From Aquificales bacterium (GTDB lineage: Bacteria > Aquificota > Aquificia > Aquificales > QOAS01), in NCBI GenBank assembly GCA_012962155.1, contig DTXZ01000004.1, positions 1-42,738 on the forward strand: DNA of 42,738 bases. Direction: 5' to 3'. The notes below the pieces were generated by a model that saw nothing but the letters and a program-made list of their open reading frames with translations, ran no database searches and was not told the origin of the DNA. This document shows, piece after piece, positions 31,890 to 36,113 of this stretch. Every line of letters begins with the position of its first letter. The stretch's first letter is position 1. The translations under genes were made by a program, and so were the position numbers.

Positions 31890-34800
31890 ATGGGGGAAAA
31901 GATAAAAGCTATATTTGAAAAGGCTTGTCCCAACTGCGGAGGAGCGATAAGCGATTACAGACTCAAAAAAGGGTTACCCTGTTACAAATGTCTACCTAAA
32001 ATAGAGAAAGAGGATAGTTACCTTGCCTGTTTGGAACTTTCCGCAACCCAGAGATTGCAAGGGGATTTTAAAGAAATTTGCCAACTTTCGGAGGCGACCG
32101 GGGACTTTTCCAACTTTTTTAAGAGTATTCATAAATCCCCCCCTTGGTCTTTGCAGATAGCTTGGTTTAAAAGATTTTTCCTCGGGAGGAGCTTTGCCCT
32201 TCTCGCCCCGACCGGTATAGGTAAAACCACCTTCGGGCTCACCTTGAGTTTTTATTTGGCGAGGGAAAAACGGCAAAAAAGTTACCTGATATTTCCAACC
32301 CGCCTTTTGGTGGAACAAGCTCTAAATAAACTCCGCAAAATGGGTGTTCCCGAAGATTACCTACTTTTCTTCGGAGAAAAACCTTCGGTAACCAAAAAAC
32401 AGAAGGAGGAGAGGTTAAAACGTCTCCGAAAAGGGGATTTTAGGATTTTGATAACTACTTCCATGTTTTTATATAGAAATATAGAAGAGATACCCAAAGG
32501 GGTTTTCTCTCTGGTTTTTGTGGATGACGTGGACAGTTTCCTAAAAACCGCCAAAAATATAGATAAGGTTCTGTATCTGCTCGGCTTTAGCCAAGAGGAC
32601 ATAGATTGGGCTTTTAGAATTATCCGCCTAAGGCGGGACCTCTCCCAAAGACCGGACGCCAAACCCGAAGATTGGGAAAAGCTAAGGGAGGAAGAGGAAA
32701 ATCTTAAAAAACATGCCCAAAGGGTTAGAAAAGGGGTTTTAATAGTTTCTTCCGCCACTTCCAACCCCAGAAGCGAGAGGATTAAACTATTTAGGGAACT
32801 TTTGGGATTTGAGGTAGGGCGTCCCCTCTTCTATTTGAGGAATGTGGTGGACGCCTACGAAGATAAATTTTTGGGCGACCAAAAGGTTATCTTAAACCAC
32901 AAACCGCTGTGGGATTTCGTCTACCAGTTTGTAAAAAAACACCCCAAGGGGGGACTTATCTATATTTCCCAAGATAGGGGTAAGGAAGAGGTAGACCGTT
33001 TGGTGGAATACCTCAACTCAAAGGGACTGAAGGTGGTCTCCTACGAAAAAATGGACAAACACCTACAGGATTATGAGGAGGGAAGGGTAAACGCCCTGGT
33101 GGGAATAGCTTCTTACAGAAACCCCTTGGCCCGCGGTTTTGATATGCCCCACGTGGTTCGGTATGCCCTCTTTGTGGGTGTTCCCAAACTAAAATTCACC
33201 CTGAAGGTGGAAGAGCATATATCCCACATACTTTGGGTGTTGCTCGCTTTGCGCCCCTTACTCGCCAAGGACGGGGAGCTAAAAGCAAAATACCTCCAAA
33301 AGTTGGACCGTTGGATAGAAAGGCTTAGGAGATACTCCTATCTATCGGAGGAATTTATTGAGCGGAATGAGCGCCTAAAGGAAATTATAGAGAAGATAAG
33401 AAACGAGGTAAGGGAGTTTATAGAAAACCCCCAAATCCTTGAGAGGATAAAAGAGAGTGAAGAGATCACCCTAAGGTGGGACGAGAAAGAGGGCTACACC
33501 CTAATAGTTGCGGATGTAACGGGATATCTTCAGGCGTCGGGTAGAACCTCCCGCCTCTATGCGGGTGGACTTACCAGAGGTTTTTCTCTAGTTTTGGTGG
33601 ACGACAAAAAAGCCTTTAACAACCTCAGGAAGAAAGTTAAATGGTTTAGCGACGAGATAGAGTTTACCCCTTTGGACAAGGTGGAACTGGAAAAACTCTT
33701 TGAGGAGATTGAAAAGGATAGACAAAAGGTGGTTAAGTTCCTAAAGGGTGAAATCCCCAAAGGTGCAAAAGAGCTTATTAAACCGGTATTGGTTGTAGTG
33801 GAATCTCCCAACAAGGCGAGAACCATAGCCAACTTCTTCGGAAAACCCCTAAGGAGGAGAATCGGAGATATAGACGTTATGGAGGTTTCCCTCGGAGATA
33901 AATTCCTAGCCGTAACCGCCTCAGCGGGACACATCTACGACCTAATAAAAAAGAATGAAGGAAATCTCTTCCACGGCGTAATAGTGGAAGGTTCCAAAAC
34001 AAACCCCAGCCACTTTATACCTGTATACGAACCGATAGAGCAGGAAACCCCTTCGGGAGGGGTCAGGGACAAAGAGGAAATTATCAACTCTTTACGTCAA
34101 GCTGGACTTGAGGTTGCGGAGGTTTACATAGGAACCGACCCCGACAGTATTACGGGTGACAGTAAAGTTCTCGTCAAGGTTGGGGATGAAATAAAACAGA
34201 TTACGGTAGAAAAACTATTCGAAGAACTAAAGGAGCGGCATGAAGTAGAGCTCCGGAACGGGCATGAGTATTTAAAACCGTCAGACCTTTACATTCCCGT
34301 TGTAGATAGGGATTTTAGCGTTAGGTTCGGAAGGGCTAAATACCTAATCCGCCACAAGGTTAGAAAACCTATATACAAAATAACAACCCAAAGTGGAAGA
34401 GAAATAAAGATTACGGGGGACCACTCCATCTTTAGGTTGGATGAAAACTTTACCCTCCAAGAAGAGAAACCCAGCCAACTCCGAGAAGGTGATTTTATAG
34501 TTGTAAACTCCCGCCTTCCGGAGATAAAAACGGGAAACCTTCAACCTAAAGGGGATTACGGAAGACAGATAGGTGATATCTTTGAGGATAGAATAAAAAA
34601 AATAGAACTTTTACCTATAGAGGAACAATACGTTTACGATTTTGAAACCGAAACCCAAAACTTTATAGCCAACAATATCCTTTGCCACAACACCGAAGGG
34701 GAAAAAATCGCCTGGGACCTTTACGAGATTTTAAAACCTTACAACTTCAACATTAGAAGAATGGAATTTCACGAGGTCACCAAAAGGGCTATTATTGAAG

Positions 34801-36113
34801 CCCTAAACAACCCCCGCCGGTTGGACGAAAACTTGGTTTCGGCCCAAATGGTTAGGAGAATTGCGGACCGCTGGGTGGGTTTCGAGCTGTCCCAACTTCT
34901 TCAGGAACACTTCAAGAAACCCTGGCTTAGCGCCGGAAGGGTTCAAACCCCCGTTCTAGGTTGGGTGATAGAGAGGGACAAACAATACCGAACCAAGAGA
35001 GGAGCGGTATTGGTATATCTACCCAATACGGAAAAGGAGAAAAGAAGGGTCTCCGTAAGTTGGGAATTTGAAGATAAAAAACTGGCAAGGGAATTTTACA
35101 AAAACCTAAAAGAGGTTGAGGTTAGGGTCGTTTCCAAACGCAAAGAGGAAAGGAAACCGGCCCCTCCCTTTACCACCGATACAATGCTCAAGGAAGCCAG
35201 CGAAAAACTACGCTTTAGCGCAAGTAAAACGATGAAATTGGCACAAGAGCTATTTGAAAGTGGCTTTATCACTTATATGAGAACCGACAGCACCCGCGTT
35301 TCCGACGTAGGAATAGCCATAGCCAAGGAATACATCGGCGAAAACTTTGGGAAAGAGTATTTCTATCCCAGACATTGGGGGGAAGGTGGAGCCCACGAAT
35401 GCATCAGACCGACCCACCCGTGGGATACCGAGGAAATCCGGTCAATGATGCTTAGCGGACAGATTCAGAGACTTACCGGCGACCACCTAAGGCTGTACGA
35501 ACTCATATTTAAACGCTTTATGGCCTCTCAAATGAGGCCTGCAACCGCCGAAGTTTCAAAGATAGAGGTAACCCCCCTTTTGGAGAGCGGAAATCTGCCA
35601 ACTCCAAAGGTTGAAAAGGAAGAGGTTACCGCGATTGTGGAGGACGGTTTTAACCTCCTTTTACCCTTGGACCTTTATTTTGTAAAGGAGGGAACTTTTA
35701 AAGTGGAAGAAGAACCGGACCAAAACCGGGAAAATGCCATAAAAGTCTACAAACTTGTACCTCTAGCCTACCCCTTTACCCAAGGAAGTTTAATAGAGGA
35801 GATGAAAAAACGGGGAATAGGACGCCCTTCGACCTATGCCCAAATAGTACAAAAACTGTTAGATAGAGGTTACGTCATAGAGAGGAAAAATTACCTTTTT
35901 CCCACCAAGCTGGGAAAGGAAGTTTATAGCTACCTTATACGGTTAAAGGCGGCGGAAAAATTCGTTAAGGAAGAATTTACGAGAATTTTGGAAGAACTAA
36001 TGGACAAGATAGAGAGGGGAGAGGTTCATTACATAGATGTTCTTAGAGATTTGTTTGAGGAAGTTTTGAAGGTTGAAATGGTCAGGAATAATAGGGAAGG
36101 AGATGAAAATTAG
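31890..36113 (+). CDS. rgy: Reverse gyrase (intein-containing precursor; 1225 aa after splicing)
   Basis: N-terminal Zn finger CPNCGG...CYKC, helicase motifs APTGIGKT, DDVD and QASGRTSR, TOPRIM VVESP.KA and DPD|TEGE, SAGRVQTP, catalytic ITYMRTDS, GIGRPSTY. Confidence 0.98.
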   Translation: MGEKIKAIFEKACPNCGGAISDYRLKKGLPCYKCLPKIEKEDSYLACLELSATQRLQGDFKEICQLSEATGDFSNFFKSIHKSPPWSLQIAWFKRFFLGRSFALLAPTGIGKTTFGLTLSFYLAREKRQKSYLIFPTRLLVEQALNKLRKMGVPEDYLLFFGEKPSVTKKQKEERLKRLRKGDFRILITTSMFLYRNIEEIPKGVFSLVFVDDVDSFLKTAKNIDKVLYLLGFSQEDIDWAFRIIRLRRDLSQRPDAKPEDWEKLREEEENLKKHAQRVRKGVLIVSSATSNPRSERIKLFRELLGFEVGRPLFYLRNVVDAYEDKFLGDQKVILNHKPLWDFVYQFVKKHPKGGLIYISQDRGKEEVDRLVEYLNSKGLKVVSYEKMDKHLQDYEEGRVNALVGIASYRNPLARGFDMPHVVRYALFVGVPKLKFTLKVEEHISHILWVLLALRPLLAKDGELKAKYLQKLDRWIERLRRYSYLSEEFIERNERLKEIIEKIRNEVREFIENPQILERIKESEEITLRWDEKEGYTLIVADVTGYLQASGRTSRLYAGGLTRGFSLVLVDDKKAFNNLRKKVKWFSDEIEFTPLDKVELEKLFEEIEKDRQKVVKFLKGEIPKGAKELIKPVLVVVESPNKARTIANFFGKPLRRRIGDIDVMEVSLGDKFLAVTASAGHIYDLIKKNEGNLFHGVIVEGSKTNPSHFIPVYEPIEQETPSGGVRDKEEIINSLRQAGLEVAEVYIGTDPDSITGDSKVLVKVGDEIKQITVEKLFEELKERHEVELRNGHEYLKPSDLYIPVVDRDFSVRFGRAKYLIRHKVRKPIYKITTQSGREIKITGDHSIFRLDENFTLQEEKPSQLREGDFIVVNSRLPEIKTGNLQPKGDYGRQIGDIFEDRIKKIELLPIEEQYVYDFETETQNFIANNILCHNTEGEKIAWDLYEILKPYNFNIRRMEFHEVTKRAIIEALNNPRRLDENLVSAQMVRRIADRWVGFELSQLLQEHFKKPWLSAGRVQTPVLGWVIERDKQYRTKRGAVLVYLPNTEKEKRRVSVSWEFEDKKLAREFYKNLKEVEVRVVSKRKEERKPAPPFTTDTMLKEASEKLRFSASKTMKLAQELFESGFITYMRTDSTRVSDVGIAIAKEYIGENFGKEYFYPRHWGEGGAHECIRPTHPWDTEEIRSMMLSGQIQRLTGDHLRLYELIFKRFMASQMRPATAEVSKIEVTPLLESGNLPTPKVEKEEVTAIVEDGFNLLLPLDLYFVKEGTFKVEEEPDQNRENAIKVYKLVPLAYPFTQGSLIEEMKKRGIGRPSTYAQIVQKLLDRGYVIERKNYLFPTKLGKEVYSYLIRLKAAEKFVKEEFTRILEELMDKIERGEVHYIDVLRDLFEEVLKVEMVRNNREGDEN
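34146..34691 (+). mobile_element. Mini-intein (182 aa, no homing endonuclease) in reverse gyrase
   Basis: Block A SITGDSKVLV (Ser1), block B GREIKITGDHSIF (TxxH), block F YVYDFETETQNFIAN, block G ILCHN followed by +1 Thr. Removal restores GTDPD-TEGEKIAWD. Confidence 0.95.

Follow-up and report, generated by a model that had tools for sequence, protein, structure and literature searches.

A mini-intein in the TOPRIM DxD/xE motif of reverse gyrase from an uncultured Aquificota bacterium of hydrothermal vents

Reverse gyrase is the signature enzyme of hyperthermophiles, and loss of the endonuclease is an expected stage in the decay of a homing intein. According to PMC2647314, Mg2+ is anchored in type IA enzymes by a DxDxE motif, whose homologue in type II enzymes is DxDxD. 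A 489-amino acid (aa) intein is listed for the reverse gyrase TK0470 of Thermococcus kodakarensis in Table 1 of PMC11409957, a reverse gyrase intein is cited under a supplementary table in PMC4760082, and bioRxiv 10.1101/524215 and 10.64898/2025.12.08.692931 mention only the removal of a reverse gyrase intein. Here, we analyzed a stretch of 42,738 nucleotides from an Aquificales bacterium (contig DTXZ01000004.1, assembly GCA_012962155.1; hereafter, the window), in which a reverse gyrase gene (positions 31890..36113, + strand; a 1407-aa precursor plus stop codon) contains a 182-aa insert (34146..34691, +; protein residues 753-934). An earlier note, written from the sequence alone, had proposed that the insert is a mini-intein splitting the TOPRIM acidic motif. 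We consider it likely that the insert is a functional mini-intein of class 1, a LAGLIDADG homing intein in its endonuclease-less form, lodged in the DxD/xE motif (slashes mark insertion points) of the sole reverse gyrase of a vent-dwelling Aquificota.

Among the closest described systems are the reverse gyrase inteins of cultured Thermococcales and Methanococcales. Using the second intein of the database record P0015, which lies before the catalytic Tyr, as a query, we obtained reverse gyrases of named cultured archaea and read 11 sequences (Thermococcus waiotapuensis, T. guaymasensis, Methanocaldococcus sp. 28A, M. indicus, M. vulcanius M7, Methanotorris formicicus, Pyrococcus horikoshii, a metagenome-assembled genome (MAG) labelled Methanococci, and three others). 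In all 11, D-x-D-x-EGE was uninterrupted and a Cys1/Cys+1 intein was present at ..GL/C...HN/CTYHRT, in line with the earlier note, which had placed archaeal reverse gyrase inteins beside the catalytic Tyr. These inteins share the host enzyme with the window intein, and each inserts at a catalytic motif within the topoisomerase half. However, the archaeal inteins lie one residue-pair before the catalytic Tyr, whereas the window intein lies in DxD/xE and the Tyr site is empty, so that the two do not occupy the same site. They also differ in their nucleophiles, with Cys1/Cys+1 in the archaeal Tyr-site inteins and Ser1/Thr+1 in the window intein. Kinship between the two groups is not close: P0012, a record with a DxD-site intein, gave a 27% match to the Tyr-site intein region, and no named archaeal reverse gyrase appeared among the 105 hits of the 448-aa DxD-site intein described below. 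Both sites are occupied in P0015 and P0017, which are split reverse gyrase topoisomerase subunits with two inteins each, one at the DxD site (257 aa) and one before the catalytic Tyr. As elsewhere, the Tyr-site intein is of the LAGLIDADG type in P0015 (456 aa), and a mini derivative of 122 aa occurs at this site in P0017.

The anatomy of the window insert is that of a mini-intein. Bases 34146-34691 translate without stops into 182 aa, from SITGDSKVLV to ILCHN, followed by Thr, and the insertion point lies between D752 and T935 of DPD/TEGE, that is, between the second Asp and the x-Glu of the TOPRIM motif. The Pfam family Intein_splicing (PF14890) matched the insert (E 1.5e-24; 87 bits vs. a cut-off of 35.8), as did the NCBIfam models for the intein N-terminal region (TIGR01445) and C-terminal region (TIGR01443; 18.3 bits vs. 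a cut-off of 15.6). PF14890 was the sole Pfam match in the 182 aa, and no endonuclease family was found there. In an alignment of seven sequences (A1), block A (SITGDSKVLV; 34146..34175, +), which starts with the first nucleophile Ser1, was invariant in all seven, and T, D, H and S were invariant in block B (ITGDHS; 34410..34427, +), which holds the TxxH motif with T90 and H93 of the intein. The same alignment defined block F (YVYDFETE; 34629..34652, +) and block G (ILCHN; 34677..34691, +), with the penultimate His933 and the terminal Asn934. Ser1, the TxxH of block B and the C-terminal His-Asn followed by Thr+1 are the features of a class-1 intein. A linker, SRLPEIKTGNLQPKGDYGRQIGD (34509..34577, +), stands in the alignments in place of the LAGLIDADG endonuclease of about 290 aa found in congeners, and it is predicted to be disordered. 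The earlier note's description of a mini-intein with blocks A, B, F and G and no endonuclease was thus borne out by the motifs and by the Pfam and NCBIfam matches.

Empty alleles in related genomes fix the junctions. We searched the whole protein against 41 genomes, namely the window genome and 40 relatives. In 32 of 33 genomes from two sister families, reverse gyrase was matched in two pieces that lie in one open reading frame (1123-1198 aa), covering query residues ~5-753 and 934-1396 and skipping residues 754-933; the 33rd (G034) contained only reverse gyrase fragments with stops. An uninterrupted TDPDTEGEKIGWD was present in all five sister-family loci that were read (L008-L012). Since these empty alleles carry TDPDTEGEKIGWD, deletion of the 182 aa from the window protein restores the conserved host motif. 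The in-frame translation and the empty alleles together show that the interval 34146-34691 (546 bp) is an intein exact to the base, and the D752/T935 junction agrees with the proposal that it splits D-P-D/T-E-G-E. Moreover, vent metagenome contigs from another study span the two junctions (N and C) as well as the linker, with zero to one differences (X8 record 20, X10 record 2 and X7 record 12). An assembly artefact is ruled out, because the mini allele was recovered in independent vent metagenomes whose contigs cover both junctions and the linker. Among the contigs of those vent runs, no endonuclease-bearing allele was seen, which proves nothing. One metatranscriptome contig covers positions 33960-34106 of the gene, at best a weak hint that reverse gyrase is expressed.

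The host gene encodes a reverse gyrase. The 1407-aa open reading frame scored 1342 bits against NCBIfam TIGR01054 (cut-off 471.7), and Pfam assigned zf_Rg, DEAD, Toprim, Intein_splicing and Topoisom_bac, with Intein_splicing (E 3.9e-24) placed between Toprim and Topoisom_bac. A Zn finger, a superfamily 2 helicase, TOPRIM and a type IA topoisomerase with its catalytic Tyr are all found in one chain. The N-terminal reverse gyrase zinc finger occupies residues 5-38 (31902..32003, +; PF17915, E 4.3e-18). The N-terminal part of TOPRIM (residues 633-752; 33786..34145, +) forms the end of the N-extein; it contains the catalytic Glu in VVVESPNKA and terminates with D750-P-D752. The Toprim match (PF01751) stops at residue 752, covering profile positions 1-66 of 96, which indicates that the intein cuts the TOPRIM domain in two. 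The C-extein starts with TEGEKIAWD and holds the remainder of TOPRIM (34692..34820, +); the empty alleles read DPDTEGE here, and Thr935 is at once the +1 nucleophile and a native residue of the DxDxE motif. The codon of the catalytic Tyr1129 (35274..35276, +) lies in GFITYMRTD (residues 1125-1133), so that the second known intein site is empty here, as the earlier note had stated.

The window gene is the sole reverse gyrase found in the window genome, a 1.12-Mb assembly of 93 contigs with an estimated completeness of 95%; the whole-protein search gave a second match in this genome, a single 609-aa frame with 30% identity on contig C63. The source labels of close homologues read Aquificaceae, Aquificales or Aquificota bacterium, and the host is an uncultured Aquificota bacterium of hydrothermal vents. 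Two further inteins, both with LAGLIDADG, are present in the same genome. One lies in the DNA polymerase III alpha subunit (contig C63, L016:241-4035, + strand), where Pfam assigned PHP, DNA_pol3_alpha, the finger domain and Intein_splicing at residues 422-765; the other lies in the RtcB RNA ligase (contig C46, L017:1-2076, - strand).

We utilized AlphaFold2 to predict the structure of the intein with 15-residue extein stubs, using an alignment of seven rows. The model had a mean predicted local distance difference test score (pLDDT) of 71 and a predicted template modelling score (pTM) of 0.68, and values of pLDDT below 50 were confined to the N-extein stub and to model residues 139-155, which correspond to the linker. 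A Foldseek search against the PDB returned the TFIIB mini-intein 5o9i as the best match (E 3.8e-12, template modelling (TM) score 0.78), followed by the TvoVMA, Pho RadA (TM 0.78-0.80) and CDC21-1 inteins. There were 54 matches at E ≤ 0.001, and the targets listed were all inteins or other HINT domains. A sequence search of the PDB agreed, finding 5o9i at E 6.3e-12. The model therefore predicts, with moderate confidence, a HINT fold for the insert. The TFIIB mini-inteins of Methanocaldococcus (5o9i and 5o9j) are the closest solved structures by both sequence and fold, and they are likewise natural mini-inteins from hyperthermophiles, of about 170-185 aa. They differ from the window intein in host protein and in site, and identity in the structural alignment is 18-23%.

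Within the genus of the window genome, six of eight genomes carried an intein at the DxD site. The window genome (G000) has the 182-aa form and G004 a 190-aa form, whereas the inteins of G001 and G005 measure 448 aa; that of G002 measures at least 434 aa, as the contig ends inside it, and the copy in G003 is cut after 96 residues. The region of the site was not assembled in G006 and G007. In Pfam, the 448-aa copy of G001 matched LAGLIDADG_3 (PF14528, E 2.5e-18) and Hom_end (PF05204), and G001, G005 and G002 retain GLWVGDG and LFSADG, the two LAGLIDADG motifs, intact and without stops. Both kinds of same-site allele that the earlier note had suggested looking for therefore exist, empty ones in the sister families and endonuclease-bearing ones in these three genomes. 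The endonuclease region is 83% identical between G001 and G005, a value equal to that of the exteins, which suggests that the endonuclease is still constrained in these species; dS was saturated over this region. As a separate observation, three of the eight assemblies of the genus (G002, G003 and G006) have a reverse gyrase contig that breaks off within the intein or shortly ahead of it, as might be expected if different intein alleles coexist and disrupt assembly.

The mini forms retain traces of an endonuclease. In the 190-aa form, FLDPQEVEKLRTETFEGRK survives as a remnant of GFLQKHKQEKLNKTFSGKS from the C-terminal region of the endonuclease, and the 182-aa linker corresponds to the 190-aa linker minus 8 aa; the alignment of the linker DNA was too scattered to give breakpoints. 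This remnant and the 448-aa alleles at the same site argue that the window element descends from a homing intein by loss of the endonuclease, which is absent from its 182 aa but present in homologous alleles at the same position. Separate deletions giving rise to the 182- and 190-aa forms were considered and rejected, because the 182-aa linkers, five in all, can be aligned gaplessly and have derived residues in common with the 190-aa linker.

We next turn to the occurrence of the site in other lineages. A database search was performed with residues 640-1040, and the best 120 hits were considered. PF14890 was found in 17 of them, and the site DPD/S...HN/TEGE was present in 16 of the 16 that were read (P0004-P0019), with intein lengths of 182, 190, 237, 256-257, 386 and 444-448 aa. 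In the distant lineages represented by P0012, P0014, P0016 and P0018, the intein at this site contains the same endonuclease, with 43-58% identity. In P0013, the intein is 386 aa long and neither LAGLIDADG motif is intact in the sequence read, and in P0011 it measures 237 aa. No empty allele at genus-level identity was present among the best 120 hits.

Two of these records point to an exchange of alleles. P0008, with a 182-aa intein, and P0010, with a 448-aa intein, are identical at 757 of 759 residues of the N-extein and 469 of 477 of the C-extein, and their inteins agree at all of the first 121 residues and at 29 of the last 30. The linker of P0008 is nevertheless of the gapless type seen in the window, though its exteins are about 18% different from those of the window. 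In a quick extein tree (support by the Shimodaira-Hasegawa-like approximate likelihood ratio test, SH-aLRT, of 99-100 at the nodes concerned), a mini form pairs with a full form as its sister in two places: the window (182 aa) with G001 (448 aa), and the 182-aa P0007 and P0008 with the 448-aa P0010 and G005. We rejected a recent deletion within the P0008/P0010 lineage as an explanation of these sister forms, since the residues that remain differ (SCLPEVDSK in P0008 vs. ETLPSEGKK in P0010). The simplest reading of these sequences would be that homologous recombination between lineages has replaced the middle of the intein, or else that an old polymorphism has been carried across species.

The interleaving of mini and full forms means that the tree alone gives no polarity, and the mini-intein could in principle be the older state, with the 448-aa alleles having gained their endonuclease later. 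We regard this reversed direction as very unlikely. The 190-aa linker holds a recognizable piece of the C-terminal region of the endonuclease, the distant same-site lineages P0012, P0014, P0016 and P0018 share the endonuclease, and elsewhere the endonuclease is decaying (P0013 and P0011). These findings favor descent of the window element from an endonuclease-bearing intein.

A genome scan, covering one genome per species, relied on two exact junction peptides, so that inteins with another block F or G were missed. It yielded eight confirmed loci (L019-L026), and the junction was read in L022-L025. L019-L021 show 74-91% identity to the window intein, the intein of L022 is a mini form (about 167 aa), and L026, from a Selenomonas record, matches weakly. 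L019, L021 and L023 are titled as Aquificales or Aquificota MAGs, L024 as Candidatus Baldrarchaeota, and L022 and L025 as Candidatus Woesearchaeota. L020 is titled Gammaproteobacteria bacterium, a label that seems mistaken, given that the L020 intein is 91% identical to that of the window and every other close relative bears an Aquificota label. A survey of the phylum found a match at E ≤ 1e-8 in 10 of 178 species genomes, six of them in the window genus. Both genomes of a second family of the same class matched with 53-56% identity, a type to which L023 and P0012-P0014 belong, and the two weaker matches (31-39% identity) lay in other, shorter frames. In three other families of the phylum, there were no matches among 90 and 28 genomes, respectively, and none at the DxD site among 50. 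As judged from these sequences, the DxD site also harbors an intein in a second lineage of Aquificota and in MAGs that bear the labels Baldrarchaeota and Woesearchaeota.

The earlier note had further proposed that both the insertion site and the host might be new. No DxD-site or bacterial reverse gyrase intein was described in the searchable paper texts, a scope that InBase and the supplementary tables (S1-S6) of PMC4760082 lie outside. To this extent the proposal stood, whereas any notion of a site confined to the window or to Bacteria did not, given the 16 of 16 database hits read and the archaeal-labelled MAGs.

The same structural spot is used in another topoisomerase. GyrB inteins (P0342, P0343 and P0355) lie at the identical position of the homologous motif, TDAD/S..HN/TDGxHIRTLL in GyrB compared with TDPD/S..HN/TEGE in reverse gyrase, and both groups have Ser1 and Thr+1; in the GyrB of P0329, TDAD/S was seen at the N junction. 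However, GyrB is a type IIA enzyme and the inteins resemble each other only weakly (24-37% in alignments of partial length, E 7e-15 to 9e-9). Beyond reverse gyrase, the 448-aa form is most closely related to the inteins of ATPases of the type II secretion system/type IV pilus type (KlbA-like, PF00437) in DPANN archaea, with 27-31% identity over the full length and E values down to 8e-78, although these differ in host and in site. Because the GyrB inteins are less similar than the ATPase inteins, the GyrB and reverse gyrase sites were probably colonized independently.

To assess selection, we compared the window with G001, for which dS was 0.43-0.55 and not saturated. The ratio of nonsynonymous to synonymous substitution rates (dN/dS) was 0.083 in the N-extein, 0.085 in the N part of the intein, 0.121 in its C part and 0.098 in the C-extein. 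The splicing domain is thus under purifying selection as strong as that on the exteins, which is expected if the only reverse gyrase of the genome can be made only by splicing. A splicing-dead insert in a decaying or repurposed reverse gyrase is an extremely improbable alternative: the splicing residues are all intact, dN/dS stays at ~0.08-0.12 in exteins and intein alike, and the genome, at its estimated completeness, offers no other reverse gyrase.

Splicing of the window intein, most likely by the ordinary class-1 pathway, would begin after translation with an N-O acyl shift at Ser753 and proceed through transesterification to the hydroxyl of Thr935 and cyclization of Asn934 with the assistance of His933; a final O-N shift would then leave a continuous GTDPD-TEGEKIAWD and an active enzyme. 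The unspliced precursor is probably inactive, because a 20-kDa domain would sit inside the metal-binding turn, the DxDxE motif being the Mg2+ motif of type IA enzymes (PMC2647314). Only a base-perfect deletion would remove the element without killing the enzyme, and this, rather than usefulness, is probably why it persists. As only such a precise deletion is tolerated, selection would keep splicing efficient. From the sequence, we infer that splicing occurs and that it is essentially constitutive at growth temperature.

Several points weigh against this interpretation. The evidence for splicing is indirect, namely the purifying selection on the splicing domain. The confidence of the structural model is moderate, given its basis in a seven-row alignment. 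Equal constraint on intein and exteins fits regulated splicing as well as constitutive splicing. In addition, the GC content of the intein is lower than that of the exteins (0.401 vs. 0.449, and 0.407 vs. 0.499 at third codon positions), a difference not accounted for by long inheritance of the element together with its host gene.

Regulated splicing would mean that the mini-intein has been co-opted as a switch, with temperature, Mg2+/Zn2+ or DNA setting the amount of active reverse gyrase, as the earlier note had suggested. The location of the intein in a metal-binding loop adjoining the place of DNA binding, the weak nucleophiles Ser1 and Thr+1, and the maintenance of the mini form through several species-level splits would suit such a role, and PMC11409957 discusses inteins of hyperthermophiles whose splicing depends on conditions. 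If it were true, the capacity for positive supercoiling would depend on temperature, on divalent metal or on the binding of DNA at the split TOPRIM. We nonetheless consider a switch unlikely. There is no direct evidence for it, and insertion into active-site motifs is a general rule for inteins (PMC5050341). Congeners thrive with the endonuclease-bearing form and the sister families with no intein at all, which argues that the mini form is not needed. The linker, by which the mini form is distinguished, shows poor conservation. A functional mini-intein that splices essentially constitutively remains the better account of the locus.

Overall, the window intein is a real but fairly ordinary selfish element, and current understanding of inteins is not overturned by it. 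As a 182-aa Ser1/Thr+1 intein of a vent thermophile, it is a candidate for a cysteine-free, heat-tolerant splicing tool. It marks a second, apparently undescribed intein site in reverse gyrase and extends reverse gyrase inteins to Bacteria. A single site presents a series of decay, from intact inteins of 448 aa through decaying ones of 386 and 237 aa to mini forms of 190, 182 and about 167 aa, together with empty alleles. This allele series and the apparent exchange of mini and full forms between nearly identical gene backgrounds could serve studies of the homing cycle and of recombination among vent populations.

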